DNA from: Eledone cirrhosa
Taxonomy: Eukaryota
Direction: 5' to 3'
Assembly (NCBI GenBank): GCA_964016885.1
Contig: OZ024745.1
Location: 73,346,001 to 73,410,000 of the forward strand
Length of the DNA: 64,000 nt
The notes beneath the pieces were generated by a model. The model did no database searches and was not told the DNA's origin. It was given only the letters and a program-made list of their open reading frames with translations. Position numbers and translations under genes: made by a program. The number at the start of each line of letters is the position of its first letter. The stretch's first letter is position 1. Of the stretch, positions 1,648-63,362 are shown in pieces.

Positions 1648-1651
1648 ACAG

Positions 1652-2993
1652 CTCATACTTGAACAGCTCTCTATCTAAAATCTGTAATCTCTGCCTAAAT
1701 GAAAAATTTACCATTATCTCTAACCTAGAATCCATAATAAATAGACGCTCAGATTTGTTTTCTATCTGCCTGCATAAATTCCATAGAACTTTTCACAAAG
1801 TATACAGTTAATATTCAATTCTTTATCAATTTAGAATCTTTTCTCAAAGGCACATATACATACACCTCTTTAAAATATACCCATCTACCTTACCTTACTT
1901 TAAAGGGCATTATACACTCTATAATACTCGTTTACTCATTACCCTCATTCTATCTTCTCGTAAAACAATAACATTTGTTTTTGACTTTTTGAATATTCAT
2001 CCGCAATCATTATTATTTTTTCTCTCTATCATAAATCTTTTTAATCTCAATTTCATCCTTAATTTATTATTATTTATTTTTTTCTCCCCATCAACGAACT
2101 CATTATTAATACATATGAATTCAATATACAAACTTTAACTTCACATTATTTTTCTCAAATCCTTCTACACATAAACCTTAACATTTCTCTCTTCGCTAAT
2201 TTTGAAATAGCCACAATACATACATTTCTTCTTTTGACGTTAGAATATTCACCCACAATTATTATTTTTTTCTCTCTATCTTCATACATAATTTCCCTTC
2301 GTTAATTTTCAAATTCCTTTAATTTATACATTATCTTCCAACGGTTCCCAACCTCTCTATATTAAAACAATATATCTTTTTCTCAGTTATAAAAACTATC
2401 TCTTTCTCTCTATCACCCATCTCTCCCTCTCCACCTTCACTCTCATCTCCTCCCCCTTTTTTTCATCCTTTCCACCCCCTCCCTCCCTAAATAAAATATT
2501 TTTCCTCGCACATATCCTCCCTTCGTTAATTTTCAAAATTTTTAATTTATACAGTATCTTCCAACGGTTTTCAACCCCTCTATATAAAAAATATATCTCC
2601 TCTCAGTTATAAAAACTATCTCTTTCTCTCTATCACCCATCTCTCCCTCTCATCCCCTTCCCTTCTCATCCTCCCCCCCCCTCTCTAAATAAAATATTTT
2701 TCCCAATATCACACATCAATCTAAAACCACTTTTCATATGTTGATTTAAAACTGCACTATCAACAAGTGTTTTTTAGCCTTCATATCATGTTCTCCTGTT
2801 TTATCTGATGAAAACAAATATTATTGCTTGATGATGTTTGTTTTTGAAATGCGCATAATAAAATATATGGAACTCCTTTAACCATCTTTTGATCTTATAT
2901 TATGCATACTCCAGTCCCACAAACTGTAGAGTGCTTCTTATCCGATATCTGCATTGCTTTATTGTACTACAATAAAACTCACCTTCTACATTA
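1652..2993 (+). repeat. 5' pseudo-LTR of the PLE
   Basis: Near-identical to 5313-6653. Includes the ORF C-terminus, CT-rich internal sub-repeats and a hammerhead. Confidence 0.93.
2799..2863 (+). ncRNA. Type I hammerhead ribozyme in the 5' pLTR
   Basis: ttttat-CTGATGA-aaacaaata...tgtttgttt(tt)-GAAA-tgcgca-TA-ataaaa. Stem I is ttttat/ataaaa and stem III is the palindrome ATGCGCAT, as typical of dimeric PLE HHRs. There are extra U residues before GAAA. Confidence 0.8.
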
Positions 2994-3009
2994 ACTTGCT
3001 CCTTAACGG

Positions 3010-5472
3010 TTGAGCGCTTACTCTCATATTGGATACCTTTTGATGGTCCTTCACCTCTTCTTCTACAACATGGATTATTACAACATAACCAATTCAACTA
3101 AAGACATTCCTATACCTGGTAAATCTGAATTCACCAAACTTCTTATTGAAAAAACTGACTCCTTCGTAAGAAGACTTAGATGGACAGCCTATTTCTATGA
3201 CCAGCGCCTAAAAGGGAACTTTCATACCAAAGAACACAACTTCCTCGATCATCTTTTTAATTCTAGACGAAATCCTCCTTCCAACAAAAATCTAGCACAA
3301 TTCGAGGAAGAATTAACTAAAATAATAAAAAATCTTAAATTCAAGAGATACCCTTACAAAGGACAAGAGCACCTTGTAAATCTCAAGAACACAATCTCTA
3401 ACCTAAATTCCTCAAAAAATGTTTTAGTCCACTCTGACAAAACCAATAACCTATATGGTATTTCCAAGGATAATTATAACAACCTTATCCTAAAGGAACT
3501 TAGGAAAAAGTATCGTAAAACCAACCATGAAAATTTAGAATGCATAAACCTTGAAGCCTATGAGATTATGTCAAAACTTGGCATTGAAAAAAAGACCGAA
3601 CCATTCCTCCCAAGAACTCCGAGGATAAATCTCAAGGATCACAAAAACAATTTTCGCACTGAACTACCTGTTAGATTAATCGCCCCCTCTAAATCTGATT
3701 TGGGGGTTGTTAGTAAAGCCATCTTGGATAGGATTATCCCACAGGTTAGTTCTAATTGCTCTTCTTTAAACCTAAATTTATGGTTTGGTACTTCTGAAGT
3801 GATTGGCTGGTTCAACAAATTGGATAATAAAAACAAACTAAAATTTATTCAATTCGATATTGCCAGCTACTATTCCTCCATTTCGCCTTCACTTCTCAAT
3901 AATGCTCTATCTTTCGCACTTAAATATTCTGACATCACCACAGATGAACTTCACATCATCCTCACCGCACGTAAAACCATCCTAGAGTTCAACAACGAAT
4001 ATTGGACCAGAGCCGATACCTCTAACAACTTCGACATCACAATGGGAGCATCCGATTCATCCCAATTGACTGATTTAATTGGTATCTTCATTTTGAACTC
4101 TTTGAGTCGGAAAATTCCTCAACTTCGCGGTGGAATTTATCGTGACGATGGACTCTTTACTATCCTAAATTGCAATATAGTTAAACTTAATATTATTAAG
4201 AACAATATACGTAATCTCTTTAACCAACATAACCTAAAAATTGAATTTGATAATAGTATCAAACTAGCTAATTTCTTGGATGTATCTCTTAATCTTGACA
4301 CTGGCCTATATTACCCTTACCATAAAAACAATGAGAATCTTAATTATGTTAACTTTAAATCTAACCATCCTACCAATATCAAGAATGCTATAGTTAATAA
4401 TATTGGAAATAGAATATCTAACATATCTTCTAATAAAAACATCTTTGATGCTAACGCCAATTACTATAATAACGCACTTTCTAAAGCCGGCTATCCAGAT
4501 AAAATCAAATATAATAAAGAAACAAATTCTAGGAAAACTTACAGTAGAATAATTAATCATAACCATTCCAATAATTTTAATAAAAGACCTAGATACAAAA
4601 ACATAATCTGGTATAATGCTCCTTTCTCCATCTCTATTAATAACAATATTCCTAAATTATTTTTTAGTGCCTTAAATAAATGCTTCCCTCCCTCACATAT
4701 CTATAGTAAAATATTTAACAAACACACCATCAAATTTTCGTATTCTACATCCGCCAATATTTCCAACATCATCTCTAAACACAACAACAAAATATTAAAT
4801 ACTAAATCTCTTCCTTCCAATATTGAATTTCATAATAACAGTAATAGTACTCCCGACGTCATTGTAAACCCTAGGCTAACTTCTGTAAACCCAAATACAA
4901 CGTCAAACACAACTTCGCTAAATGTTCATAATCCAACTCTAAATCAAGAAACTATTATTCCTATTATTCCTATCGCAAACAACTTCTCCAATCCAATTCC
5001 TTCTATAGATAACACTAGATCACTCATTAATAATCTCTCTAATTGCAACTGCCGCATTAAAAATAAATGTCCTCTCAACAACCATTGCCTCGATAAAAAC
5101 TTAATTTATGAATGTAAAATTATAACTAGCACCAATTCCTTCACCTATTTTGGCTCCACTTCCACCTCTTTTAAAGCTCGTCTCTATAATCATCATTCAT
5201 CTTTCAAATACAAACTTAAAAGAACTAACACTGCTCTCTCAGAACTCATATGGTCCTTAAAAGACAAAAACATTAAATATAGCATCTTTTGGAAAAAGAT
5301 TTCTTCTGCATCCTCATACTTGAACAGCTCTATATCTAAAATCTGTAATCTCTGCCTAAATGAAAAATTTACCATTATCTCTAACCTAGAATCCATAATA
5401 AATAGACGCTCAGATTTGTTTTCTATCTGCCTGCATAAATTCCATAGAACTTTTCACAAAGTATACAGTTAA
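3010..5472 (+). CDS. PLE polyprotein: reverse transcriptase + Cys-rich linker + C-terminal GIY-YIG endonuclease (most like the Naiad clade); probable ATG at 3070
   Basis: Uninterrupted 820 codons. RT motifs PVRLI, FIQFDIASYYSSI, FDITMGASDS, IYRDDGL, NFLDVSL. Linker CNCRIKNKCPLNNHC. GIY-YIG LIYECKI...TYFGST...KARLYNHHSSF. C-terminal CNLCLNEK...CLH. Confidence 0.93.
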   Translation: MSAYSHIGYLLMVLHLFFYNMDYYNITNSTKDIPIPGKSEFTKLLIEKTDSFVRRLRWTAYFYDQRLKGNFHTKEHNFLDHLFNSRRNPPSNKNLAQFEEELTKIIKNLKFKRYPYKGQEHLVNLKNTISNLNSSKNVLVHSDKTNNLYGISKDNYNNLILKELRKKYRKTNHENLECINLEAYEIMSKLGIEKKTEPFLPRTPRINLKDHKNNFRTELPVRLIAPSKSDLGVVSKAILDRIIPQVSSNCSSLNLNLWFGTSEVIGWFNKLDNKNKLKFIQFDIASYYSSISPSLLNNALSFALKYSDITTDELHIILTARKTILEFNNEYWTRADTSNNFDITMGASDSSQLTDLIGIFILNSLSRKIPQLRGGIYRDDGLFTILNCNIVKLNIIKNNIRNLFNQHNLKIEFDNSIKLANFLDVSLNLDTGLYYPYHKNNENLNYVNFKSNHPTNIKNAIVNNIGNRISNISSNKNIFDANANYYNNALSKAGYPDKIKYNKETNSRKTYSRIINHNHSNNFNKRPRYKNIIWYNAPFSISINNNIPKLFFSALNKCFPPSHIYSKIFNKHTIKFSYSTSANISNIISKHNNKILNTKSLPSNIEFHNNSNSTPDVIVNPRLTSVNPNTTSNTTSLNVHNPTLNQETIIPIIPIANNFSNPIPSIDNTRSLINNLSNCNCRIKNKCPLNNHCLDKNLIYECKIITSTNSFTYFGSTSTSFKARLYNHHSSFKYKLKRTNTALSELIWSLKDKNIKYSIFWKKISSASSYLNSSISKICNLCLNEKFTIISNLESIINRRSDLFSICLHKFHRTFHKVYS

Positions 5473-6649
5473 TATTCAATTCTTTATCAATTTAGAATCT
5501 TTTCTCAAAGGCACATATACATACACCTCTTTAAAATATACCCATCTACCTTACCTTACTTTAAAGGGCATTATACACTCTATAATACTCGTTTACTCAT
5601 TACCCTCATTCTATCTTCTCGTAAAACAATAACATTTGTTTTTGACTTTTTGAATATTCATCCGCAATCATTATTATTTTTTCTCTCTATCATAAATCTT
5701 TTTAATCTCAATTTCATCCTTAATTTATTATTATTTATTTTTTTCTCCCCATCAACGAACTCATTATTAATACATATGAATTCAATATACAAACTTTAAC
5801 TTCACATTATTTTTCTCAAATCCTTCTACACATAAACCTTAACATTTCTCTCTTCGCTAATTTTGAAATAGCCACAATACATACATTTCTTCTTTTGACG
5901 TTAGAATATTCACCCACAATTATTATTTTTTTCTCTCTATCTTCATACATAATTTCCCTTCGTTAATTTTCAAATTCCTTTAATTTATACATTATCTTCC
6001 AACGGTTCCCAACCTCTCTATATTAAAACAATATATCTTTTTCTCAGTTATAAAAACTATCTCTTTCTCTCTATCACCCATCTCTCCCTCTCCACCTTCA
6101 CTCTCATCTCCTCCCCCTTTTTTTCATCCTTTCCACCCCCTCCCTCCCTAAATAAAATATTTTTCCTCGCACATATCCTCCCTTCGTTAATTTTCAAAAT
6201 TTTTAATTTATACAGTATCTTCCAACGGTTTTCAACCCCTCTATATAAAAAATATATCTCCTCTCAGTTATAAAAACTATCTCTTTCTCTCTATCACCCA
6301 TCTCTCCCTCTCATCCCCTTCCCTTCTCATCCTCCCCCCCCTCTCTAAATAAAATATTTTTCCCAATATCACACATCAATCTAAAACCACTTTTCATATG
6401 TTGATTTAAAACTGCACTATCAACAAGTGTTTTTTAGCCTTCATATCATGTTCTCCTGTTTTAGCTGATGAAAACAAATATTATTGCTTGATGATGTTTG
6501 TTTTTGAAATGCGCATAATAAAATATATGGAACTCCTTTAACCATCTTTTGATCTTATATTATGCATACTCCAGTCCCACAAACTGTAGAGTGCTTCTTA
6601 TCCGATATCTGCATTGCTTTATTGTACTACAATAAAACTCACCTTCTAC

Positions 6650-6653
<4 letters not shown>
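5313..6653 (+). repeat. 3' pseudo-LTR of the PLE
   Basis: Direct repeat of 1652-2993, followed by (TA)n at 6652-6690. Confidence 0.93.
6459..6523 (+). ncRNA. Type I hammerhead in the 3' pLTR (T>G at the stem I base next to the core)
   Basis: Same as 2799-2863 except ttttag-CTGATGA. Confidence 0.72.
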
Positions 6654-6694
<41 letters not shown>

Positions 6695-15974: not shown

Positions 15975-16003
<29 letters not shown>

Positions 16004-16005
<2 letters not shown>

Positions 16006-17411: not shown

Positions 17412-17522
17412 CGATCTTCTATTTTCTATTCTGTTTGTGATCGCGGTCATTCTGTTATCTTATGTAACTAATTCTGCAATTAACAGAATACGTATATATA
17501 TATAATACGTATATATATATAT

Positions 17523-18185: not shown

Positions 18186-18190
<5 letters not shown>
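17523..18190 (+). mobile_element. Non-autonomous hammerhead element: 466-bp unit plus 202-bp terminal direct repeat, between (TA)n tracts (retrozyme/mini-PLE-like)
   Basis: 17523-17724 = 17989-18190 with one mismatch seen. Canonical HHR in the unique part. No ORF. Confidence 0.88.
17923..17967 (+). ncRNA. Type I hammerhead ribozyme, canonical core
   Basis: aatattg-CTGATGA-gttgt aaca acaac-GAAA-ctag-TT-caatatt. Perfect 7-bp stem I, 5-bp stem II and palindromic stem III AACTAGTT. Stem I is extended by attctctagaaaggccgga/tctggctttctggagaat (~17894-17990). Confidence 0.92.
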
Positions 18191-29695: not shown

Positions 29696-30098
29696 TTAAA
29701 AAAAAGAGAGGTGTGACACACGAGTTGTGATATATTACTAAAAAGGAAAAGAAAATGCTGACAAATTTTTCCCAGTGAAAAATAGTTTAATTAGGAATAA
29801 GTATAAATTAGTACTAAGTATTGGTTAGTATTCAGTTTTAGTTTTAAGTTTTTACCGGTTGCGCATTTCTTATGCTTTTCAAAAAATAATTTTGAGATAG
29901 AGTGCTCGTGATGTTTGAGCAAAAATCACGAGCACTCTATCTCAAAATTATTTTTGAAAAGCATTAGAAATGCGCAACCGGTAAAAACTTTAAACCAAAA
30001 CTGAATACTAACCAATACTTATTACTAATTTATACTTATTCCTAATTAAACTATTTTTCACTGGGAAAAATTTGTCTGCATTTTGTTTTCCTTTTTAG

Positions 30099-30107
<9 letters not shown>
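29696..30107. mobile_element. Asymmetric fold-back element between (TA)n tracts (~185-bp arms)
   Basis: ~29730-29912 is the reverse complement of ~29925-30107 with several mismatches. The left arm extends ~35 bp further to its own (TA)n. Confidence 0.88.
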
Positions 30108-30167
<60 letters not shown>

Positions 30168-30259
30168 CAGGAAAGAAGAGTGACACGGTTTGCTATACAA
30201 AAAAGGCTTTTAATCTCATTGCTGACAATTGTTTCTCTGAACTGTTTCTCTAATTTCTA

Positions 30260-30302
<43 letters not shown>

Positions 30303-30307
<5 letters not shown>

Positions 30308-30596
30308 TAGAAATTAGAAAATATAAGCTTTCACCGTATTTTAGACTAAAGAAATTTCTAGCTTGATAGTGGGGTTTATAACCCTCGGAGAAATGGAAAA
30401 AGATGAGTGTTGCCGTACATGTACAGCAACACTCATCTTTTTCCATTTCTCCGAGGGTTATAAACCCCACTATCAAGCTAGAAATTTCTTTAATCTAAAG
30501 TACGGTGAAAGCTTATATTTTCTAATTTCTAATTTCAAACTAGCACACCGTTTCAAAAACATACTTACATGTTTACGTTTATAATTTGCTTGTTTA
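30303..30596. mobile_element. Asymmetric fold-back element between (TA)n tracts (117-bp arms, no spacer)
   Basis: 30303-30536 is palindromic about gtaca|tgtac (30419/30420). The right arm extends ~60 bp to (TA)n. Confidence 0.9.
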
Positions 30597-30618
30597 TATA
30601 AATATATATATATATATA

Positions 30619-30956
<338 letters not shown>

Positions 30957-31139: not shown

Positions 31140-31652
<513 letters not shown>

Positions 31653-31848
31653 ATATATATATATATATAAAATATTAAACAAATAATGAATAAAACAATG
31701 AAACAGTTCCTTATATTAAACAAAAAAAGTTCATTATTTAACGATCGTTTCTAGGATATCCGGAATACATTGAGTTTTCATGATATCCGGAATACATTGA
31801 GTTCTTCATACGGATTGGACACTACCGTAAACTCTTGGTAGATTTATC

Positions 31849-35556: not shown

Positions 35557-36559
35557 CTGTTTTATTGAGTGAGGGGTTGGGTGGGACTGTGTTTTGTTTT
35601 TGGGTAATGTGTTGTGTCTGTTTGTGTTGTGGTGGTGGTGTAGTTTTACTGAGGGACGGGTTGGGTGGGACTGAGTTTTGTTGTTTGTTTATCTGTTGTG
35701 GTGGTGGTGGAGCTGGTGTTGGTAGCAGGGTTTTCTTCTTGTTGAGTTGGGGACAAGCCGCCTTCAGGTGCCCTCTGCCTGCACAGATATGACAGGACGG
35801 CCTTCTCCCCTCCACGCTAATGTTTATATACCCGTGGCCCTCTAATAGGATTCTGTCGGGTATTTGGGCAATGCGTTCAGGCTTCATTTGCACTACAAAT
35901 TCTATACCTGTTCCACTGAACGCATTGCCTGTGGTTTTCCCAATGGAAATCACGTTGTCATTCGCTGGATCGATGAAGCCAGCTATGAGCCAGCAGTAGT
36001 CTACATCTGGCATCATCGCATCCAGCCATATGCGCTGAGTTCTTTTACCCATATAAGATGGATAAAAGGTAAAATTTGTCGAACGAATCGGCGACAAAGC
36101 ATATTTTTTTGCCGCTGATTCGTTCTTCATAATAATCGTTAGGTTTCCATACAGCCTGTCTCTTCTTATGAAAGTGGCTTCATTAAGTACTTCTGTAAGT
36201 ACTACTTTAATTTCTGCTTGTGTTGGTTGTTGAGGTTTTTTTGAGATGTTGTTGATGGTGCGGAAAACGACCGTCCGACTTTCAATATCTTTGGTGAGTT
36301 CTTGGGGCATTTTTACCGATAAGATTCCATTTTCCCCTTGAGTTATGTATTGTTTGGCCTTTTTTATTCTTTGTGCCACATCTGAAATATTTTCAGGTAT
36401 ATATGTTAAAGATTTCTTTGTTGTTTGTGCAAATGAAATATTATTGGTGTTGACTTTGTCGTCTGCTTTGCTTTCTGTTATGATGTTGTTTTCAAATGTT
36501 ATTTTTGTGTTTGTTGTGTCTTTGTTTGTGGTATTAATATTGTCATGCAAATCTTTCAA
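35537..36559 (-). CDS. Tx1-like ORF1 (nucleic-acid-binding protein with CCHC knuckle), C-terminally truncated
   Basis: VEGRRPSCHICAGRGHLKAAC followed by P/Q-rich repeats; homologous to 41780-42672. Confidence 0.85.
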   Translation of the reverse strand: MKDLHDNINTTNKDTTNTKITFENNIITESKADDKVNTNNISFAQTTKKSLTYIPENISDVAQRIKKAKQYITQGENGILSVKMPQELTKDIESRTVVFRTINNISKKPQQPTQAEIKVVLTEVLNEATFIRRDRLYGNLTIIMKNESAAKKYALSPIRSTNFTFYPSYMGKRTQRIWLDAMMPDVDYCWLIAGFIDPANDNVISIGKTTGNAFSGTGIEFVVQMKPERIAQIPDRILLEGHGYINISVEGRRPSCHICAGRGHLKAACPQLNKKKTLLPTPAPPPPQQINKQQNSVPPNPSLSKTTPPPQHKQTQHITQKQNTVPPNPSLNKTGGKELG

Positions 36560-37108
36560 ATTTTTTTGTTGTTGAAATCAATGTCCAGATTTGTGTTTTC
36601 GTCATTTTTCTCCGCACATTCGTCTGTTTTTCTTTTATTTTTTCTTTCCTTCTCTATGACGTTAGTTGGGAAGGAAGGGGGGACTAAAGCGTGCGAGCTT
36701 ACAACTCTTACCGCTGTCCCCCCCACCACTATTTTCGTTAGCTTCGTTTAACATTTCTGTCAGACGATTGAACTTTTATGCCACAAATTTTTAAAAAACA
36801 GGTTTTTCACTCCTGGGAGGGGCGAAGATGAGCTGACCCACCGCCTGACAGTTCAGACGGGGGGTCAAGCTACACAATAGTATCAAAATTAAAATTGAAC
36901 TTACAAAATTTCCGCAATAAATTTGAACAAAACTTCTGCGCGAAGTGAATTACATCTCTGCTGTAGAACAGACGACAGCTAGATTGATAGATAGATAGAT
37001 AGATAGATAGATAGTTTGGTAGGCAGGTACGTAGGTATGTAGGTAGGTAGGTATGTAGGTGGGTGAGATATTAGGTAGATATAGAGATAGATAGATAGAT
37101 GGTTAGAT

Positions 37109-37161
<53 letters not shown>

Positions 37162-37425
37162 GAGAGAGAGATAGGTAGATAGATATGTTTCTTTATTAGC
37201 CACAGGGGCACAAAAGAAGGGGACAAATACAAAAGGGGATGTTTACATACAATAAAAACGTGTAAAATATTATCACAAATGCAATTTAAAAATTAAACAA
37301 TTTTCCCAAATAGGGGGAGACATTACATATGGGTAACACATACCCCCGAAAAAAAATGTGCAACCCTCATCTCCAGGAGTACGAAGAGTTTGTACTCCTT
37401 TCCTCTCCTCCTCTTTTTCCTCAAC

Positions 37426-40400
37426 CTACAGGCTGATATAGAGAGAAGGCCCATTCACTCGGGCCATTCTCGCCACTTTCACCCACCTTTCATAAAACTT
37501 GCTGGGGTACAGCACCTCTCTCTGCATCCTGATTCTTCTTCCAAAGTGGTATTTGAAAATAAGAATCAGTTGTTGGCCGGAGAGAAAATGTCTGACCTCA
37601 GCCCTTTCAACCTTGTCCACCATACAACCTCTTTCGCCATAGCTATCACACAAAGGAAAACCGCCTCTCCTTCCTTTTTGAAGGAGGGTGGCGGTTTGAT
37701 CATGACAATGGACTTGGTGGTCAACTGGATTGGTCCCACCCGCGACAATAGTCGTTCCACATAGCCCCACAGGTCGGTGACGCCCGGGCAGTGTATGAAT
37801 GCGTGCGCGACGGTTTCTTCGTCTCGCACGCACCTCGGACAGATCTTTTTGCAGGGTCCCTGCCCGGGCGCCCATGTCTGTAGAGCTTGTCTCGAACTGG
37901 TAGAGCTCCTCGGTAGCACTGCCAGGCCAGGGACTTTTGGAAGTGGTCCATCGGTCCCGGGCGGAAGGTCCTACTGAACAGACTGGCCAGTTCGTCTTCT
38001 TCTACGCCCAGAGTTTCACCGAACACGTCGTCGCACTTGCTGCGGATCAACCCTCTATAGAATGACGAAGTGGAGTCTCCACTGATCGCCGGGTCCGCCT
38101 GCCAGAGGGCTGTGAGCGCCTGAGCACATTCGATGTGCAAGTCGCCCATTTTCCTCGGTCTTTGCTTGACCCAGGACTGCAGCTCGGTCAGCGAGACGAG
38201 TCGTGGGAAGGCTCGCCTCACGAACGGGGCTCACACCGGTTGTCCAGTGAGGAATACGTAGAGAAGCTGCAGCCTGAGCGCGTGTTTGCGCATCGTCAGC
38301 CACGGCATCCCCATCCCTCCGTTGGAAGGGCGTTGGCAGCAGATGGATCTTCTCACCAAAGGAGCCTGCCTCTTCCAAAGGAATTGAAAGAGCGCGCGCT
38401 CCATTTTGGCGAGCGTTTTGGTGGACAAGGCACGACGGTCAAGCGGTAGTAGAAGGCGGACGCTATAAAAGTGTTCGCCACCTCCGCTCGATCTTTCAAT
38501 GATAGTTTGCACTCGGCCCACTTCTGGGTGAGTGCAAACACCTTGACCGACACCTCGTTCCAGTTCTTCTCCACCTGGAGGTCCGGACCAAACCAGACCC
38601 CGAGCAGCTTTACTGGTCCTTCCGTCCAGCCTTGGAAGTGGTCCATCGGAATGCATTGGTTTGCCTCTCCACGATCCGAGTTACAAAACGATGGACTTGT
38701 CCCGGTTCAGCTTCGCTCTTGTGAACCTTTCGTATTCCTTCAGTAAGGTGCCGACCTCCTCGATTTACGAGGCGCTCGACACCATTACTGTCACGTCGTC
38801 GGCGTAGGCCGACGCCGCTTTCCGCAGTCCCGGTTCCAACTTCCTTAGTAGTGGCTCGAGAGTCAATACGTACAGAAGGGAGGAGAGAGGGCATCCCTGT
38901 CGAATGGATCGCGTAGCCGTTCACCTTAACCCTTGAGCAGATGTTGCTGTTATGCATTGCAGCAATCCAGCCCTTGAACACGGGTCCGAAGCCTGCCGCC
39001 TCGAGCACCGCAACCAGGTAACGATGGTCAACCCTATCGAAAGCCTTAGACTGATACAAGTTGATCAGGGCCCCACCGAAGCCGGGTTTACACCCTACCC
39101 TCTCTATGATGTATCGCATGACGTGGAGGTTGTCGTGTATGGACCTGGTCGGGATTGTGCATGTCTGCGCTTCTCCCACCAGGTTCTCGACGACAAGCGC
39201 CAGCCTCTTTGCCAACACCTTGGCCAAAATCTGTAACTGTGTTTAGCAGAGTTATGGGCCGGAAGTTGCCTATGTCATCCCCCTTATTCTCGTCCTTCCT
39301 GACAAGTGTGACTACGCCCCCGGTCACAGAACTGGGAATTCTCCTGTTCTGTTGCCAGTTGCAGTAGACCGCTTCCAGGAGACCGGAGAATAAGTCCGGC
39401 ATTGCTACGTAAAATTCGTAGGGTAGACCGTCGAGACCTGGAGATTTGCGTTTGCCGCATTGGCTCAACGCGTCCCCTATCTCAGCGGCTGAAATCGGCT
39501 TTTCGCAGAACCTTGCCTCGCTGTCCGAGAGTCGTGGTAGGCCGTCGAGGTATGGACTAAAATCCATAGCCCCTCCCGGCGCGCCGCCCTGCCCGAACAG
39601 CTGAGCAAAGTGCCGCTGAAAGGCCGCACACATCTGCTTCGGCTCACGTATCACGCGTCCGTTTTGGTCCTTCAAAGACCGAATCGTGGACTTGTTGCCA
39701 CTTTTTGCCTCCGTCACTCGGGCCCAGCTAACAGCTTTGGCTCCCTCGTTTCCCAGAGCACGTATTTTGCTTCTGACAACGCAGTCCTCATGCTTTGCGT
39801 CGAAGAACTGGCCCAAGGCCGTTCTCGTTGCTAGCACGCTGGCTACGTTGCCACTTATAATTGCCTCTTCTACTTTATCTACCAATTCTTTCTCCGTTCT
39901 ATTTCTATCTAACGTTAATTCTTTACTAAAAACTAACGAGTCTAATCTAACTGCCCTCTTGCGAGAGTACCACCATCTGTTGTTGACAATGGCCCCTGTC
40001 AAGTGCTGTTTAACTAAAGTGCTAATCCGTCTACTGTAGGCTTTGCATGTCGGTAACGACAAGTTCAGCTTCCAGTAGCCGGGTCCTTGTCTATGGGTTC
40101 TATCAAGGTTGACCATGCAGGTTACTAGTTTGTGATCTGAATAGGCAACCATGAACATTTGTGGACAGCTTAACATGTCCCTATCTTTATTTCTAACTAG
40201 AACCCTATCTAGGTACGATCTAGATGTTCCGCTGCGATTAGTCCACGCCCACAGTGGCACAGTCGGAAAATCTAGTCGATATCTATCGGCCAGGTCAAAT
40301 CGGCCGATTAACTGTTTGATGATGTTACACCCCCCTTTATCGGGACATGCTCCCACATAGTCCCAACGTGCATCTAGGAATCCATTCCAGTCCCCCACTA

Positions 40401-40812
40401 AAAGCAAGGAGCGGGACGTTCCCAGAAAAGCCTCTAGACGTTTGAAGAAGTCTGGCCGCGGTGTCCCGGATGGGGCATATGCGGCCACCAGCCTGAAGGC
40501 TCCACCTTCACTACCGTCAACGTCTAGGACCACCAGTCGACCCTCCGGGTCCAGATGTACCGTCTGTGTTACGAGGCCCAGGTGTTTCCGTAGCAAAACG
40601 GCAACCCCGTCCCCATCCCCCGGCTGACAGAGAGATGCGTAGATCTCAAAGTCATCGAAGATGGGGGCCAGCTGTCGCTCGCTGTGGATCCTGGACTCGT
40701 AAATGGCTACTACATCCATACTGTGCGACCTGAGGTCGTTTAAGAGTTTGCCCTGTTTCCAGGGCATCCCCAGGCCGCGTACATTCACACACCCAACTCT
40801 TATATTGGCCAT
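37426..40812 (-). pseudogene. ORF2: APE endonuclease - RT - zinc-binding domain, several frameshifts
   Basis: MANIRVGCVNVRGL, LLVGDWN, SYLDRVL, SDHKLV, KSPGLDGLPYEFY, NFRPITLLN, KAFDRVDH, YADD (~38795-38806), CPRCVRDEETVAHAFIHC. Confidence 0.93.
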
Positions 40813-40849
40813 GTTGGTTCTGAAAAGTTCAAAGAGGAGAAGAAAACAC

Positions 40850-41642
40850 TCACCTCTTCGTCTCCCGGGTATCAGGCCGCACGGTTTCCATGGGGGTGTT
40901 AGAGGAGTTGTCTGGGTGGGTGGTGGTTTCCGGCAGGGTGGGGACGGAGATGTTTGGTGGGGTGGGGGTGTCTGGGGTGACTGTGTCTGGGGTGAGGGTG
41001 GGGAAACTTTTTTAAAGGACCCGGTTAATGGGTTTAACACAAGGATTACCCACGTCCTTAGGAAAGTTTTCCTTTAAAGACTTATAACTGTCCGCAGGGA
41101 CCCTAATCATCTTTAAATTAGGTTTGTCTACACAGTTCGAAAAAGTTTTCCCTTCGGTGAAAACCGAAGGGTCGTTGGAGATGACCTCCATTAAACTTTT
41201 GTTTTTACTGTTTATGTATGTGTAATGTTCTTGTTGTGTTGCGGTGGTTTTTGTCTGTTGTTCTTGTGGGAGCTTTCGTTTTGTCGTAGGTGTTTGTGTT
41301 TGGAGTGATGTCGTGGTTTTGTTTTCGGGACGGGGGGGGTTTTGTTTGTAATGTTTGTGTTGTTTGTGTTGGTGGTTGTATGTTTGTAGTGATGTTTTTT
41401 GTTTATTTTGTTCTTGTGGTGTCTTTTCTTCTTTCTTTTCGAACGGAGAGGCTCTCCCTCATCATCACTTGGTGATGATGTGGGGGCCTCGTCCGTTGTG
41501 GTCTCCGTGTTATTTGGAAGGGGGTATGTTTTGGGGAGCTGTTGTGTTTGTGGGTGTTTTTGCAGTGGTTTTAGGTGGAGTGGGGTTGGGTGGGACTGTA
41601 CTTGCAGGTTGGTTTGTTGTTCTTGTTTTGGTTGTGTTTGCG

Positions 41643-41709
<67 letters not shown>

Positions 41710-42672
41710 GGTGTTGTTGTTGTTGTTGTTGTTGTGGTTGTGTTGTTGTTTTGGGTGTTGGCAGTAGTGGCTCTTTTTTTTATTTAGTTAACTGAGGACA
41801 ACAAGCCTTCAGGTGACCACTGCTTAAACAGTGGTAACATGAAGGCCGCCTACCCTCAACAGAAATGTTTATGTGTGAAATTCCATCCAGAGGCACACGT
41901 TGGGGTATTTTAGCTATCCGTTCTGGCCTCATTTGGACCAGAACTTCTATGCTTGTACCATTGAATGCGCCTCTGGAGGACTTTCCCACCGAAATGATGG
42001 TGTCTTCGTCGAAATCGATAGAGCCAGTTAGAATCCACCAGACGTTTACATTTGGTGCAATGTTCAAAATTTTTATTTTTTGAGTTCTTTTTCCCATATA
42101 TGTGGGGGAAAAGGTGTAAAGAAGAGGGGGGGGGACACAATCGGTGATACAGAATATTTTTGTGCTGTCAATTGGTCTTTCAACAACACCGAAATGCTTC
42201 CAAAAAGTTTCCCTTTTTGGATGAAGGCAATATCCTTCATGGAATTCTTCAGAACCAGTTCAATATCGTTTTGGGATAACTGAACTGGTTTTTTCGACAC
42301 ATTTGAAACCGTCCTAAAAATTACTGTTTTTAGAACAGTTTCTCTGCGTAACTGTTGAGGAGAAGTGATGCTGAAAGCACCACTCTCACCAAAAGTTACG
42401 TACTGTTTTCCATCGCTTAACATTTCCCTAGCATTGGAAATGTCAAGGTATGTGAACAGTTCCGTCTTTTGGACGGTTTGAGCAAAATAAATCTTTTCCT
42501 TGTTCGTGGAGTTGTTCGTGTTGCTGCTGTTGTTGTTGGTGGTGTTGTTGTTATCATTGTTGCTGTTGTTCTTGTTGTCATTATTGTTGTTGTTGCTCTG
42601 GTTGGTGTTGTTTATATTTTGCATGTTATTGGTGTTTGTTTTAGTGTTGATGTTACAATCAACGTCCGACAT
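40850..42672 (-). pseudogene. ORF1 of copy A, with frameshifts, CCHC knuckle, poly-N and poly-Q tracts
   Basis: VEGRRPSCYHCLSSGHLKACC; (CAA)n at ~41643-41750; frameshifts near homopolymer runs at ~42100 and ~41775. Confidence 0.8.
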
Positions 42673-43003
42673 CGTGTTTTCAAAACTGACGATGAGGTGG
42701 TGAGAGTAGGTGAATGCGAGCTTAACACTCTTACCGCCTCTCCACCACTTCTAGTTATGAACGCAGCGTTCATGACTGAATGCAAGGTTTGTTAACAATA
42801 TTTTTTATGACCGGCGAAATTTGTTTCAAAACGAAAATTTCACCCCAGGGAGGGGTGAAGATGACTTGACCCACCGTCTGAAAGTCCAGACGTGGGGTCA
42901 AGCTATAAAATAGTAATAAATTTAACAATAAATTTTTGATTTCTTACTTAGAAAATCAACAAAAACTTACCAGCGAACTGGCACACGTCTCAAGTAAAAC
43001 CAG

Positions 43004-45350: not shown

Positions 45351-45746
45351 AAACTGCCATTAAAGTAGTTTCTGTTAAAGTTTTGCAGCTTTGGAAATTG
45401 TGAAATGATCTCGCTGAAGTTCAGCCCAGTATTAGTGGAAGCTTTCTCTCACAACAACCAATCATAAATAACCACGAGAAAAAGCAAAAACACATGCAGA
45501 CCTGTCAATTCTTCCCGTCGGACAGGGAGATCTCCCATCCACTTTGTGGTGGGTGAGAGATGTCTTCTCTTGTGAAAATGGGTATAGCTTTCATTATGTA
45601 AAATCTCCTTATTTTACCTTATTTCTCTCCGTTTTGGGGTACTTTTTTCGTGGTACTCCCCGTTGAGGTTTTTAGAGGTTGGCAGGTCTGCATCTGATAC
45701 ATTTTGAAGTGTCTTTAATATGTTCCAGACAGTCCACCTCCACATA

Positions 45747-46012
45747 GATAAATGGAAAAAATGAAATTTCATTTCTCACTCTTAGTACGGCTGATACTTA
45801 AATATAAGTATGTATACGTTTGTTTACAAACAAACCGAGCATTATAATAAATGTTCGGTAAACCCATACGTACATATATATATGTGTGCATGTATGTATG
45901 TATATACATACTACTGTACGTCTGTATACATATATGTATGTGCGTATACATACTTATATTTAAGTATCAGCCGTACTAAGAGTGAGAAATGAAATTTCAT
46001 TTTTTCCATTTA
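45747..46012. repeat. ~70-bp inverted repeats enclosing part of the 57905-58323 element, ending at (TA)n
   Basis: 45747-45817 is the reverse complement of ~45943-46012. The spacer matches ~57925-58076 in reverse. Confidence 0.85.
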
Positions 46013-46765
46013 TATATATATATATGGCGTTGTTGAAAAGAGCAGTGGCCTGCAATAAAACTGGAGACAAAATTTTTCTGTACCAAAAAACAAGGTACAC
46101 ACAGACACACAAACAAGTTTGTTTGTGGGTGTGTGTCTCTGTGTCAGTGTGCGCGCGCGCGCGTGTATGTGTGTGTGTGTGTGCATCTATCTATGTATAT
46201 ATATATAAGGGATACAGATATTGTTTGCTCTGTCACTAAGCATCTTAATTCATTCGTTGCAACTAAGTTTGTGATCGAGGCACTTTATTTTACAAGGTAC
46301 TATTTTCCCCTTGAGTTTGTGATTCAAGAGAAAGGTAAGAAATTCTTCATATTTTGCATCTTTTGTATTTTGACTTTACAGTTTGAATTGTAGAATTGTC
46401 TATCCACTCAAAATATTACATCAGCTAACAGTGAAATGTAGAATTTTAAAAAAAAAGCTTTTTCGACTGAGATCAAATCTTTGAGAACATTCTGAAATAG
46501 CTTGCTTTTGTTTTGGACTGAAACCTTTTTGTATTTAATTCGTACGAGTATTTTTTAAAGATTTTTTTAAGATTCTAACAGAACTTGATTTGGCCCAGTA
46601 ATCTACTGATATCAAAATCAGTAGTATATTGAAAATTGGAAAAATAGGGTAGGGGGGGGGGTGTTTCGTGATTTCGAGGGGCGTTTGGCCAAAATGGGTT
46701 GAGAACCTTTGCCGTATATAAATACGGCATCTCTACGACTCCTTCGGTAGTTACAAAACCATGCC

Positions 46766-50450: not shown

Positions 50451-50535
<85 letters not shown>

Positions 50536-50740
50536 AGTTATATTTAATTTGTTGGGTTACAACAACGAAATATTTTTATAACTGATATAAAGCACTCAAC
50601 AAATTTTTGGAGTAAAAATACAATATATTAACAAATGGAAACTATATTTATAAAACCATATTCATTTCATTATACATATACATATCCTTGAAATATGTAT
50701 AATGAAATAAATATGGTTTTATAAATATAGTTTCCATTTG

Positions 50741-50748
<8 letters not shown>
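50536..50748 (-). mobile_element. Family X fold-back, copy 1 (truncated inside the hammerhead)
   Basis: Homologous to 51885-52043 and 62483-62641. Arms ~50623-50678 / ~50693-50748; long arm on the left. Confidence 0.85.
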
Positions 50749-51396: not shown

Positions 51397-51450
<54 letters not shown>

Positions 51451-51575
51451 AACAAGCCCTTTCCCTATATTGGGTGCTAGTACACACACACACACACACT
51501 GGCTCATATACACTCTTACAAATATGCGCATATTCACATACAGGCCCACGCACGCCTACAAAGATATATACATAT

Positions 51576-52039
51576 ATATACGATATTAAACAAATGGAAA
51601 CTATATTTATAAAACCATATTTATTTCATTATACATATTTCAGGGATACCATATTAAAAATATGGCATGCCTTCTTCAGACAAAATACAATATATAAGCA
51701 GTTTTATAAATAAATTTGACGTACCATAGAATTTTGAACAACTTCCATTTAAAAAAGTTGGAAGTTGTTCAAAATTCTATGGTACGTCAAATTTATTTAT
51801 AAAATGGTACGTCAAATTTATTTATAAAACTGCTTATATATTGTATTTTATCTGAAGAAGGCATGCCATATTTTTAATATGGTATCCCTGAAATATGTAT
51901 AATGAAATAAATATGGTTTTATAAATATAGTTTCCATTTGTTTAATATCGTATATCTACTCCAAAATTTGTTGAGTGCTTTATATCAGTTATAAAATATT
52001 TACTCGTTGTAACCCAACAATTTTTAAATAAAACTTTTG

Positions 52040-52043
<4 letters not shown>
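51576..52043 (+). mobile_element. Family X fold-back, copy 2, with a hammerhead in both arms
   Basis: Arms ~51576-51747 / ~51759-51955, and the long arm continues to 52043 and (TA)n. HHR tattttat-CTGAAGA-agg...ccct-GAAA-tatgta-TA-atgaaata at 51844-51909. Confidence 0.88.
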
Positions 52044-52069
<26 letters not shown>

Positions 52070-52070
<1 letters not shown>

Positions 52071-52833
52071 GATCAAGTGATTGTCTCGTTTTTTGAAGTT
52101 TGTGTTACAGATAGTTAGGTTATTAGCGTCACAGAATTCTAGGATTCTGGAGCCTTCCTCATTTCTACTACCAAACCTTCTTCTTTTTTATATATCTCTA
52201 TGTGACGTTATATGTATATTTTTAATATATTACATATTTCTTTTATATATGTGTATATACGTATGTGTATATATAGATGTATATATATATGTATATATAT
52301 GTATGTGTATATATGTATGTGTATGGTTATATTGTTTATATATGTGCATGCTTATAACAAGATGCATAATTTCATGTATGACCCATTGTGTATCTTTATA
52401 TGACTTTGTGTATATATCCTATTTGTGTGTATATATATATGTGTATATATATATATATATACACAAATAGGATATATACACAAAGTCATATAAAGATACA
52501 CAATGGGTCATACAATGGGTCATACATGAAATGATGCATCTTGTTATAAGCATGCACATATATAAACAATATAACCATACACATACATATATATACACAT
52601 ACATATATAAACATATATATATACATCTATATATACACATACGTATATACACATATATAAAAGAAATATGTAATATATTAAAAATTTACATATAACGTCA
52701 CATAGAGATATATAAAAAAGAAGAAGGTTTGGTAGTAGAAATGAGGAAGGCTCCAGAATCCTAGAATTCTGTGACGCTAATAACCTAACTATCTGTAACA
52801 CAAACTTCAAAAAACGAGACGATCACTTGATCA
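52070..52833. repeat. Inverted duplication (~360-bp arms) centred on a TA-rich tract; copies the first ~108 bp of the RTE fragment plus its flank
   Basis: 52070-52430 is the reverse complement of ~52460-52833. 52726-52833 encodes GFGSRNEEGSRILEFCDANNLTICNTNFKKRDDHLI, in frame with the downstream RTE. Confidence 0.92.
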
Positions 52834-54960
52834 CCTACAGATCAGGGGAACATACCAGCCAGGTAGATTATATCCTTAACAGAAGACGTATCAGAGTGTC
52901 TGTTGTAAACACTAAATCCCCCATGAAGAATGCACCTTCCAACATAGACTCATAGTTAGCGACCTCATAGTCAGGACGAGACATACTTGACAACAGAGGA
53001 GGACTATCCTAAGGAGAAGAATATGGCAGTTAAAGGACCCCACAGCCAGTAACAAATTTAAAAGCATATTACTTGATGCTTTTGACAGTAAGGAAGAGCA
53101 ATTAGAGACGTACAATATAGAGGAACAGTGGGAATTCCTGAAAGTTAACCTGCTGAAGGCGACAGTTGAAATCTGTGGCTGGAGCAGACCTATAGGCAGG
53201 AGGAGAGTAACGTGGTGGTGGAACAGTAAGGTGGAGGAGTCAATCAAGGCCAAAAAGCAGGCTTGGAAAGTATGGCGGGATGGGGGAAGTAGAGAAGACT
53301 ATCAAGTAGCCAGGAGGGAAGCTAGGAGACAAGTGTACTTTGCAAGAAGGGAAGCAGACGAAAGAAAGTTCAAGCATGTTCTACAACGCGAAGACCAAAA
53401 ACGTGAGGTGTTCAGGATTGTTAGGCAATGTGTCAAGGAAAACCGTGATATTGTCGGGGAGAAGTGTGTCCGTAATGATGATGGTGTACTTGCCATCACT
53501 GATGCTGATAAGAAGGTAGCTTGGAAGTGTCACTACGAGAGGCTACTAAATGAGGAGAATAAGTGGGAAAAAGATAGTCTGCCCCACATCGATCCAATAG
53601 AGGGACCAGCAGTGCAAGTTGAAGGTAGTATAATAAGTAAGGCAATCAAAGATATGAAGACAAGCAAGGCACCTGGGCCTTCGGAGATAGTTGCTGAAAG
53701 CATCTGGAACGGTGGGACACACTGTGGTCACCCGGATAGTAAACCAAGTCATACAGAACTGTGTCATACCAAATGACTGGCGTAGCAGCATCATCTTTAA
53801 CTGCTACAAGGGTAAAGGAGATGCCCTAGATAGGGGAAACTATAGACGCATTAAATTAATTGACCAGGTCATGAAGGTCACAGAAAAAGTTATAACACAA
53901 CTAATAAGAGAGCAAATTGATCTAGACGAAATGCAGTTTGGGTTTGTGTCAGGTAAAAGTACCACAGACGCCCTTTTCTTTGTACGACAACTACAGGAGA
54001 AGTACCTAGCTAAAAGTAAACCCCTATACTTAGCTTTTGTTAACTTGGAGAAAGCATTTGACAGAGTCCCCCGCTCGATTATCTGGTGGGCCCTTAGAAA
54101 ATTAGGGGTTGATGAATGGCTGGTGAGAGCTATACAAGCCATGTATAAAGAAACAGTCAGCAAGGTTAGAATTAACAACGAATATAGTGAAGAATTTAGC
54201 ATAAAAGTTGGTGTTCATCAGGGCTCTGTTCTTAGTCCCCTCCTATTTATTATTTCCCTTCAGGCTATAACAGAGGAGTTCAAGACCGGCTGCCCATGGG
54301 AACTTCTATATGCAGATGATCTAACGCTCATAGCTGAATCGATGGCTGAACTAGAGAAGAAATTCCAAACATGGAAGCATGGCCTAGAATCAAAAGGCCT
54401 TAAAGTTAACTTGTCTAAGACTAAAGTTCTAGTATGTAGGAAGGAAAATAGGGCACAGGTCACCATGGGAAATGGCCATGCTCAGTGTGTAGGGAAGGAG
54501 TAGGCAGAAATTCCATTTTATGTCCCTAATGCAAAGTATGGGTGCATAAAAGATGTAGTGGGATCACAGGTAAGCTATCTAAGAACGTAGATTTTATATG
54601 TGGCCGGTGCTCAGGTGCAATAGGTAGCAAGTGTCCACAGGATACTAGCTCCTTCTATTGCCCAGATGTCTCTATAGAAATAGTGGACACCTTCCGTTAC
54701 CTGGGTGACAAACTCAGCAGTGGTGGAGGGTGCTCTGAAAGTACAGTAGCCAGAGTCAGAACGGGATGGAAAAAGTTCAGAGAGCTTATACCACTATTGA
54801 CCACTAAAGTTTTCTCTCTAAAAATGAAAGGCAGACTGTATGATGTCTGCATACGAACTGTTATGTTACATTGCAGTGAGACATGGGCATTGTGTGCAGA
54901 GGATCTGCGCAGACTGGAGAGGAACGAAGCATGCATGCTCCGCTGGATGTGTAATAGTAA
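52726..54960 (+). pseudogene. RTE-clade LINE fragment: APE C-terminus - RT - PHD-like Cys cluster; frameshifted
   Basis: HLITYRSGEHTSQVDYIL, KAPGPS, KGKGDALDRGNYR, FVNLEKAFDRVPR, GVHQGSVLSPLLF, LLYADDL, WVHKRCSG...FICGRC, FRYLGD. Confidence 0.93.
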
Positions 54961-55160
54961 TACACGGTGTATTTTTGGTTAAGAGGTATCTACTGACTGT
55001 AGGTTTCGCTTTGTACTTAGGCAAGGTCTTCTGTATTACTGCGTAGCGTCAAAGATCTCGGTCCAATGACATTGTCTTGGAGAGGTGTAAGTGTGTCAGG
55101 TCGGATTTTATCAAATCGTCCCAGGTTTTTCTGGGTCTGCCTACTCCGTAGCTTCCATCA
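54961..55160 (-). mobile_element. RTE-like ORF C-terminus in inverted orientation, tail-to-tail with the body
   Basis: Minus strand reads KCRAIKIDGSYGVGRPRKTWDDLIKSDL. Confidence 0.75.
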
Positions 55161-55214
55161 ATTTTGATCGCCCTGCATTTTTTTATATATATATAAATCT
55201 ACATACATACATAT

Positions 55215-57144: not shown

Positions 57145-57782
57145 TAAATAATAATAATAATAATAATAATAATGATTTCTTTAGTACATGTGCATTTTAA
57201 ACAATTTGGACAAATGTTCTTCTATGAGTTAAGTTTCTAACCTTGGGCTTATATTTTTTCCCCCTCCTCCTGTCCTGTTGTGACAATCTTAATGTCAGTG
57301 GTATCTGACTAGCTAGCCTGCACGCTATTTCTGCAACAAGTCTCACAACCATATCTTCATCATGGTACCGGTTGCTGTTCAAATATTGGACTATGTTTCT
57401 GTATTAGTTACCTTCTGTATTATTGGAACTTTATAGAAACGACGTTGACTTATGGATAGTTTATTGTTTGCCTAAAGAAAGCAGTCATCAAAAGGACATA
57501 TAATGTTAAGTAAAATCTACTTGAATTTCTTAATTCGCAGAATAATGATAATTTGTATGCTGTTCAAGATAAGAGCTGAATTTATTATATATCTAATTCT
57601 TAAAGAAGTCAACTAGATGGTTTCACAATTAATTTGATAACAGTTAGCAATGTTTACTTGTCATACTTTTCTCAGAATGGTTTGAATGGATTCTTTCGTA
57701 CACACACATACACACATGCACGCCCGCACACACATACACACACACACGCGCGCGCGCGCATACTCACTCATATATATATACA

Positions 57783-57883
57783 CAGGGTGTCCCAAAAATT
57801 GTATACATACACTTTAATTATCTGTACAAGCAATATTTATTAGAATTCTGTTGAAGTGTGTATACATTTTTTGGGACACCCTG
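57783..57883. mobile_element. 101-bp Tc1/mariner MITE
   Basis: TIRs cagggtgtcccaaaaa.tgtataca / tgtatacattttttgggacaccctg; TA on the right flank. Confidence 0.85.
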
Positions 57884-57904
57884 TATATATATATATTTAT
57901 ATAT

Positions 57905-57978
57905 ATAAATATAAGTATGCATACGTACATACATATATGTATACAAACGTGCAGTAGTATGTATATACATACATACAT

Positions 57979-58024
<46 letters not shown>

Positions 58025-58323
58025 GTATGGGTTTACCGAACATTTCTTATAATGCTCGGTTTGTTTGTAAACAAACAGCTCGAATTATTAGCCGTACATT
58101 GTTCAGCAACCATCGTTGCCATTTTGTTCAACACTGACAAAGGAACGATGAACTAGTTTCTAGCTTATTAGCTGTCATCAGCACCGTATGCCTTCCTGTC
58201 AGTCGATTGAACGTTTGAAAGTATATACTTACCTTATGCATATTAACGGCTGAGCAGCCTAATTTGCTACTGTACGTCTGTATACATATATGTATGTACG
58301 TATACATACTTATATTTAAGTAG
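57905..58323. mobile_element. MITE-like element with ~50-bp AT-rich inverted termini
   Basis: taaatataagtatgcatacgtacatacatatatgtatacaaacgtgcagtag / ctactgtacgtctgtatacatatatgtatgtacgtatacatacttatattta. Related to 45790-45965. Confidence 0.65.
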
Positions 58324-61830: not shown

Positions 61831-61834
<4 letters not shown>

Positions 61835-62635
61835 ATTAATAAATGGAAACTATATTTATAAAACCATATTTATTTCATTATATATATTTCAAGGATACCA
61901 AGTTAAATCATGGTATGCCTTCATCAGACAAAATACAATATATAACAGTTTTATAAATAGATATTGACGTACCCTTTCAAAAAGGTGACCGTTGTTTTTG
62001 GAGGCCATCCGGATAGTGGTTTGTTTACTTTAGTAAGTCATAGTGTTAAGAGTAAGTAAAAAGATGGAGAGAGAGAGAGAGAAACGTGGAGAAAAGAAAG
62101 GGAAAGATAGATAAAGAAAAAGAAGAAAGCAAAAAGAAAAGAGAACAGAGGAAAAATAACGGGGAGATATCAAAACATCAGACAGAGAAAGAACTCTGTC
62201 TGATGTTTTGATATCTCCCCGTTATTTTTCCTCTGTTCTCTTTTCTTTTTGCTTTCTTCTTTTTCTTTATCTATCTTTCCCTTTCTTTTCTCCACGTTTC
62301 TCTCTCTCTCTCCATCTTTTTACTTACTCTTAACACTATGACTTACTAAAGTAAACAAACCACTATCCGGATGGCCTCCAAAAACAACGGTCACCTTTTT
62401 GAAAGGGTACGTCAATATCTATTTATAAAACTGTTATATATTGTATTTTGTCTGATGAAGGCATACCATGATTTAACTTGGTATCCTTGAAATATATATA
62501 ATGAAATAAATATGGTTTTATAAATATAGTTTCCATTTATTAATATTGTATATCTACTCCAAATATTTGTCGAGTGCTTTAAATCAGTTATAATAATATT
62601 TGCTTGTTATATCCCAACAATTTAAATAGAACTTT

Positions 62636-62641
<6 letters not shown>
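61831..62641 (+). mobile_element. Family X fold-back, copy 3: ~357-bp near-perfect arms, 6-nt loop, hammerhead in both arms, (TA)n on both sides
   Basis: 61831-62187 vs 62194-62548; the only difference I saw is a 2-bp (GA)n indel. 93-bp extension to 62641. HHR tattttgt-CTGATGA-agg.atacca...tggtat.cctt-GAAA-tatata-TA-atgaaata at 62444-62508. Confidence 0.92.
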
Positions 62642-62677
<36 letters not shown>

Positions 62678-62685
<8 letters not shown>

Positions 62686-63362
62686 ACAAAGCAATCAAAT
62701 CTATGTTTAATACATTTTATTGCTGACAATCGTTTCTTCCAAACAGTTATTTGGAATCATCGGAGCATTGGCAAAGTTTAAACACATAGATAACTCTCAA
62801 CACATGCAACAACAAAACTTTGTTTATGTATATTACACAATTTGCTTCATAATTTTCACCTTGTATCTTCCCCATGCATTACTGACTGCTTAATATGTTC
62901 ATCCTATTACACCTATATTTTGTGATATCTTTGCCATATTATGATATATATGCTTAATACCTCTGCACTCTTACTACCTATATGCTTATGTACCAATAAT
63001 GCCCTCCTTTGCGAGTAACCCTCTTTTATACTCTTTATTATACCCTTTGTTGCAGACCATAACATCTTTACTCATTTTGAATATGACACTACTGATAGCA
63101 ACAATAGTATCAACATATCTTTATGAATGTTCTGTTAAATAGGAATTTATTTATGTGTTTAAACTTTGCCAATGTTCCGATGATTCCAAACAACTCTTTG
63201 GAAGAAACGATTGTCAGCAATAAAATGTATTAAACATAGATTTGATTGTTCTGTACTTTATATTCCTGCTCTGTAATACACCTGATGTATTCACATTGAG
63301 CTATTTTTCATACTGGTAATAAGGTGGTAAAAAATCAAAAATACTGACCTTTCCTGCTTATA
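62678..63362 (+). mobile_element. Fold-back element (~115-bp diverged arms, ~350-bp spacer) with a variant hammerhead in each arm
   Basis: 62678-62792 vs ~63147-63261. HHR tgtt/tgct-CCGATGA-ttccaaa caactc tttggaa-GAAA-cgattg-TC-agca at 63173-63219, mirrored at ~62721-62767. ~100-bp extension to a TA-rich end. Confidence 0.85.

Follow-up and report, generated by a model that had tools for sequence, protein, structure and literature searches.

A TA-centred inverted copy of flanking and LINE DNA beside a putative Penelope-like insertion in Eledone cirrhosa

A 64,000-nt stretch of the Eledone cirrhosa assembly (contig OZ024745.1), referred to here as the window, contains a palindrome with near-perfect arms and ~360 nt of copied DNA. 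One end of the palindrome lies within a decayed LINE, and the other is separated by a TA repeat from a copy of a small palindromic element family, which we call family X. This arrangement raises the question of which arm is the original, and of whether the copy was made as the neighbouring element was inserted or in a step of its own. An initial annotation of the locus had proposed a joint origin, in which a cut in (TA)n snapped back, copied ~360 nt of flank and was then joined to the element end. The features that bear on this question are listed in Table 1.

Table 1. Features of the palindrome locus and of the elements compared with it (positions in the window)
Feature	Position	Strand	Description
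Autonomous Penelope-like element	1652..6651	+	Partial tandem; inverted copy in 1-1652; ends in (TA)19
5'-truncated fragment	30164..30247	-	3' half of hammerhead-like motif; joined to 16-nt inverted copy
Second TA-centred fold-back	30248..30319		Exact 16-nt arms around (TA)19
Family X copy 1	50530..50743	-	Short palindrome and tail
Left flank	51460..51575	+	CA-strand bias as in right arm; inferred neighbour of right arm in empty site
Family X copy 2	51578..52043	+	Putative non-autonomous Penelope-like insertion; tail ~85 nt
(TA)13 tract	52045..52070		Separates tail of X copy 2 from left arm; probably target-derived
Left arm	52070..52427	-	Inverted copy: ~105 nt of LINE 5' end and ~250 nt of flank
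Centre	52428..52461		Imperfect (TA)17; inferred fold-back point
Right arm	52462..52833	+	Resident flank (degenerate CA/TA repeat DNA) and LINE 5' end
Decayed RTE-like LINE, 5'-truncated	52728..54966	+	Endonuclease end, RT, C-terminal part
Family X copy 3	61831..62640	+	Long palindrome and tail

Structure and polarity of the palindrome

Self-BLAST of the window gave a single inverted self-alignment at 52070-52833, with 778 columns and 94.6% identity when gaps were counted. When the arms were aligned to each other (52070-52425 and 52464-52833), they had 352 matches, 4 substitutions and two gaps, of 2 nt and 12 nt. The longest exact match between them was 134 nt, as compared to no more than 38 nt in any of 200 sequences simulated under an order-3 Markov model. 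The substitutions were found at left/right positions 52082/52821, 52217/52686, 52293/52610 and 52368/52533; one is a CpG-to-CpA transition and three are transversions. At the site of the D/N substitution, homologues show S or I and give no polarity. The 12-nt gap corresponds to a tandem duplication within the right arm, at 52500-52526. Exact or near-exact tandem duplications of 12-27 nt were also seen at 51779-51829, 17487-17521, 31445-31478 and 31755-31809, and such short duplications are frequent in or beside these palindromes and TA-inserted elements of the window.

The 34-nt centre of the palindrome reads TG(TA)5TGTG(TA)9, which can alternatively be described as a 14-nt tandem duplication or as the imperfect (TA)17 of Table 1, and it is predicted to close as a hairpin with a 4-nt loop. 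The initial annotation had described a TA-rich centre and arms that differ by several substitutions and a ~12-bp duplication, and these descriptions agree with our alignment. It had placed the start of the palindrome at 52044, which we correct to 52070, the preceding 52045-52070 being (TA)13.

To determine which arm is resident, we relied on the LINE and on strand composition. The LINE, to which we give the provisional label RTE from its motifs rather than from a phylogenetic tree, contains 3 frame changes and 2 in-frame stops, and its RT domain matched RVT_1 in Pfam (E 4e-31). It is 5'-truncated near 52728, since its homologues extend upstream of the FGSRN motif and the window sequence does not. 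A homologue of its endonuclease, P0001, which carries PF14529 and was 81% identical over a 53-aa query, aligned on the plus strand to 52728-52919 and passed unbroken over the arm end at 52833. On the minus strand, the LINE homologue protein matched 52175-52074 only and then ended. Counts of CA/AC versus TG/GT were 37 vs 6 to the left of X copy 2 and 56 vs 15 in the right arm outside the LINE, as against 12 vs 53 in the left arm. The right arm passes without a break into the LINE reading frame, the left copy breaks off at 52070, and the strand bias agrees with this orientation; the right arm is therefore resident and the left arm its copy. The evidence thus supports what had been proposed from the letters alone, namely that the right arm runs into an RTE-like frame and that resident DNA spanning the flank/LINE junction was copied in inverted form to give the left arm. 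Since the copied segment spans that junction, the duplication is younger than the LINE insertion, and an origin at LINE integration was rejected on the same ground.

Two further arrangements of non-LTR sequence were seen in the window. The segment 54967-55183 holds, in inverted orientation, the 3' end and the C-terminal coding end either of the LINE itself or of another copy; its tail faces that of the main copy, and, as judged by RTE motifs, ~135 nt are presumably missing. One end of this segment adjoins (TA)6 at 55184 and a repeat that recurs at 15975-16454 (95%), the other junction carries a 7-bp mini-palindrome, and the segment is possibly a second case of break-end remodelling at a TA tract. 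On the minus strand, 34405-42750 holds tandem decayed non-LTR elements with gag-like zinc-knuckle and endonuclease/RT frames, which we assume to be L1/Tx1-like.

A motif scan found no hammerhead motif in the palindrome arms, and they had no similarity to the end of the autonomous Penelope-like element (PLE), with an alignment score of 28 that 94 of 300 shuffles equalled. Since both marks are absent, the palindrome is not an element-internal inversion, and an inverted-pLTR structure of the PLE type was ruled out for 52070-52833. A MITE or foldback DNA transposon was likewise rejected, as the right end lies inside the LINE reading frame and no other copy is present in the window. Neither the flank nor the flank/LINE junction recurs within the 64 kb. 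Matches of the hairpins to miRNA-type Rfam families were sub-threshold and were rejected as structure-driven. No gene affected by the palindrome was found; its surroundings are repeat-rich, intergenic-looking DNA.

Family X, Penelope-like elements and TA tracts

The autonomous PLE has an open frame of 821 codons (3007-5472) with an asparagine-rich linker. The frame matched no Pfam family, and its Atlas neighbours belong to GIY-YIG, HTH_animal and RVT_1 clusters. Hammerhead-like motifs were detected at 2805 and 6465. Over 1-6690 the element is arranged as a partial tandem plus an inverted copy that are >99% identical, with truncation points that differ between the inverted and direct copies, and it is apparently intact and very young.

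Family X has three copies in the window, whose palindromes have differing centres and whose tails are ~85-90 nt long. Copy 2 has a palindrome of its own (51573-51958) with a hammerhead-like motif at 51852, and such a motif is also present in copy 3. In both copies it is a predicted ribozyme, obtained from a scan with a consensus motif rather than as an Rfam hit; Rfam hammerhead matches in the window were sub-threshold only (17912 and 31304), with none in family X. Minimum-free-energy folds of the hammerheads recovered stem II and were weak (z -0.7 to -2.6). When aligned to the end of the autonomous PLE, copies 1-3 scored 58-63, and for each copy none of 300 shuffles scored as well. With the motif, an inverted copy, a one-sided tail and PLE-end similarity all found, we take family X to be a hammerhead-bearing, non-autonomous relative of the PLE in the window. 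A metagenome scan for a 29-nt motif of family X found it in 0 stretches.

In every X copy the inverted arm halts at a common internal TA-like motif (51576, 61826 and 50749), which has ~5 nt in common with the target (TA)n; this stop may explain the fixed length of the tails. The repeat beyond the tail is (CT)n(AT)n at copy 1, as opposed to (TA)n at the other two copies. Because this repeat varies by site, the (TA)13 that separates the left arm from X copy 2 is probably target DNA, and not part of the tail of X copy 2 as had been supposed.

Many other small elements lie at TA tracts, including those at 30620-30831, 62682-63258, 57897-58322, 45744-46017, 17526-18189 and 31276-31619. These six represent several families, most with a hammerhead-like motif and with inverted or direct terminal repeats. 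Another small element, at 57770-57896, has terminal inverted repeats beginning CAGGGTGTCCCA, is flanked by TA dinucleotides and is presumably a Tc1/mariner-type MITE. Palindromes of ~370 and 234 nt at 29697-30106 and 30303-30601 are each followed by a tail of 35-65 nt, with (TA)n at both outer sides. Neither has a hammerhead motif, PLE-end similarity or a second copy in the window, the last two having been assessed for 29730-30106 and 30303-30536, and they may be either other non-autonomous families or more flank fold-backs.

After merging, the window contains 34 TA tracts, of which 16 adjoin an element end; this count is descriptive and uses 19 ends listed by hand. At such a frequency, the adjacency of the palindrome to X copy 2 needs no common cause. 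We asked how often the two flanks of a TA tract form a fold-back of at least 10 nt, using merged tracts and a complexity filter. Fold-back centres were found at 2 of the 34 tracts and in 1 of 1122 mismatched flank pairs, the lone match among the latter being due to X-family homology. The unmerged form of the test gave 6/43 vs 139/1806 at score 8, figures in which TA runs contaminated both test and control. The segment at 45744-46017 was set aside as a flank fold-back, its core matching the element at 57897-58322.

The other tract that scored is the second fold-back of Table 1. A hammerhead fragment abuts its 16-nt inverted copy with the truncated end, in an L1-like geometry; over a short length, this fragment matches the hammerhead element at 63147-63330. 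In both TA-centred fold-backs, the copy is bordered on its outer side by a hammerhead-type element. The chance of both touching such an element is ~0.05-0.08, by a post hoc estimate from 15-19 ends and 68 tract sides, and this shared contact is no more than a hint of a link between the fold-backs and such elements.

Origin of the duplication

The reading that we favour, tentatively and with a confidence just short of even, is that a (TA)n tract broke and was repaired with a local fold-back insertion, in a step distinct from the one that integrated X copy 2. The starting site would have consisted of left flank, (TA)n, flank and decayed LINE. A break within the TA tract would leave a 3' end able to pair with itself, as (TA)n is self-complementary; synthesis would then copy ~360 nt of the right flank, and the new strand, once displaced, would be end-joined onto the TA remnant of the opposite side. 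X copy 2 would have inserted into that remnant, earlier or later. The break may have come from a TA-targeting Penelope-like endonuclease or from fragility of TA itself; the break with its source, the enzymes that acted and the timing with respect to X copy 2 are inferred and are not read off the sequence.

In accordance with this scheme, the insert is the reverse complement of the immediate flank, the fold point is self-complementary, and the left arm shares no more than 1 nt with the TA tract where the two join. This near-blunt outer junction is what snap-back synthesis followed by end-joining predicts. Three points weigh against this reading: the contact of both fold-backs (2/34 tracts) with hammerhead-type elements, which is a hint only, the arm divergences, which do not separate the duplication from X copy 2 in age, and the ~360-nt copy, which exceeds most yeast cases (most 5-34 bp; PMC11724301).

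The initial annotation had instead joined the duplication and X copy 2 in one event. The Penelope-like endonuclease would cut (TA)n, the right end would snap back and copy the flank, and the product would be joined to X copy 2 as it integrated. Such an event is possible but not favoured, and we consider it unlikely, although several observations speak for it. The palindrome and X copy 2 are directly adjacent; at AT-rich DNA, a PLE protein cuts the two strands and extends both (PMC11167929); and L1 insertions with inverted flank duplications primed by 2-bp TA/AT homology have been described (bioRxiv 2024.12.14.628481). In the second fold-back (30248-30319), too, a hammerhead fragment is involved, and with its truncated 5' end. 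The arm divergences allow an equal age: the duplication has 4 substitutions per 352 matches and X copy 2 has 1 per 172 (Fisher p = 1.0), so that the ages are not separated, and comparison with X copies 2 and 3 pooled gave p = 0.086.

Against a single event, the (TA)13 between tail and copy requires an extra step: if it is target DNA, as is probable, it must be inserted between snap-back and priming. The duplication also lies on the tail side, which is tied to RT initiation (PMC11167929), as opposed to the 5'-truncated end in L1, and the base rate of adjacency to TA tracts is high (16/34). Of the earlier proposal, the inverted copy and the fold at a TA tract are supported, the outer junction is as snap-back and end-joining predict, and the joining during X integration stays a less favoured possibility. 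The more general proposal that TA-targeted integration could create inverted duplications of host DNA can draw on two cases in one window.

The same product, with left (TA)n, inverted copy, (TA)n and resident DNA in this order, could have been made during replication and without a break, if a nascent strand folded at (TA)n, copied ~360 nt of itself and returned to the TA tract. Short-range template switching has been reported (PMC7954356), and loss of flank is not evident at the locus. The return switch would have had homology of at most 1 nt, which counts against this origin, and we regard it as quite improbable, with the proviso that template switching and break repair are inseparable by sequence alone.

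Spacerless palindromes in TA-rich DNA are a classic form of chimera, so that a fold-back artefact of library or assembly has to be considered. It is very unlikely, given that 4 substitutions, of which one affects a CpG, and 2 indels distinguish the arms and that other palindromes of the window have family-consistent ends. A search of sequencing runs with 51440-53600 gave 3 runs of one sample, possibly the source, that contained 0.51-0.57 of 200 words, and 5 runs of other organisms with 0.05-0.15, which speak neither for nor against an artefact. The least credible origin is a flank/LINE chimera mobilised as a unit, as a retrocopy or by a PLE in trans, with the palindrome as a self-primed 5' inversion like that of family X: its outline resembles that of the element palindromes in the window, with a copy arm ending at (TA)n, and PLEs are able to move host DNA in trans (PMC3846280), but flank and junction have no second copy in the window, PLE-end similarity is absent (see above), the copy arm ends 2.3 kb short of the next TA tract where element-type palindromes end ~35-90 nt from the far end, and the strand bias runs on into the left flank.

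Local fold-back at a broken (TA)n therefore remains our preferred reading, and the structure belongs to an already described class of break-repair scars. The window is crowded with TA-targeted Penelope-like insertions, and the palindrome among them is a real-looking fold-back scar of an ordinary class; taken as one locus, it illustrates cleanly, in natural DNA, a type of repair scar already known. A wider idea, which we hold to be doubtful, is that TA-targeting PLE endonuclease/RT complexes routinely leave host-flank fold-backs of tens to hundreds of bases at (TA)n, whether or not insertion is completed, and are a main source of long perfect host palindromes. Bearing on this are the hammerhead-type elements that both TA-centred fold-backs touch and the inverted 3' end of the LINE (54967-55183), which ends at a TA tract. 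If this were true, PLE complexes would thereby also give rise to fragile sites and to hairpin RNA in animal genomes rich in microsatellites. If the link to PLEs held genome-wide, flank fold-backs would be a countable footprint of two-strand cutting at (TA)n in existing assemblies.

Relation to known systems

A literature search, with most subscription papers and supplements outside its reach, found no description of PLE insertions with inverted duplications derived from the flank. For a purified PLE protein, cleavage and extension of the two strands at AT-rich DNA have been shown, with the tail lying between two RT start sites (PMC11167929), and the steps by which PLEs join their second end were described as still undefined (PMC8557442). 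Family X and the autonomous element match the inverted-pLTR-plus-tail architecture of endonuclease-containing PLEs (PMC3846280, PMC8557442). The features that they have in common with described PLEs are a head-to-head inverted copy, a one-sided tail, a hammerhead, TA targeting and proposed self-priming (PMC3846280, PMC8557442, PMC11167929). In contrast to the inverted pLTR of PLEs, in which element DNA is copied (PMC3846280, PMC8557442), the palindrome studied here copies host flank and LINE sequence around a TA centre.

In human L1 insertions, inverted duplications of the flank were found at the reciprocal (non-priming) end, joined to the cDNA end (bioRxiv 10.1101/2024.12.14.628481). Our locus resembles these cases in that a retroelement lies beside inverted target DNA with a small hairpin and TA/AT homology, and differs from them in that a Penelope-like derivative has the duplication next to its tail, with (TA)13 between the two, and in that a single event is no more than possible. 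The reciprocal-end geometry was thus absent at 52070-52833 and present in the 16-nt case at 30248-30319. At R2 5' junctions, snap-back synthesis similarly precedes joining and is sometimes templated by nearby target DNA (PMC11204384); unlike our natural locus, the R2 cases are engineered rDNA insertions in which the snap-back occurs at the cDNA 3' end.

Another parallel is found in yeast. At double-strand breaks, local fold-back produced inverted insertions of 10 to >150 bp, most of them 5-34 bp, whose second junction had 0-5 bp of microhomology (Yu et al. 2024, PMC11724301). The Eledone palindrome differs from these in being part of an animal assembly, in its ~360-nt length and in its essentially loopless (TA)n fold point. 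It is like them in that an inverted copy of one flank is inserted at a presumed break, with the fold at a short inverted repeat near the end and the other junction within the range of 0-5 bp (PMC11724301).
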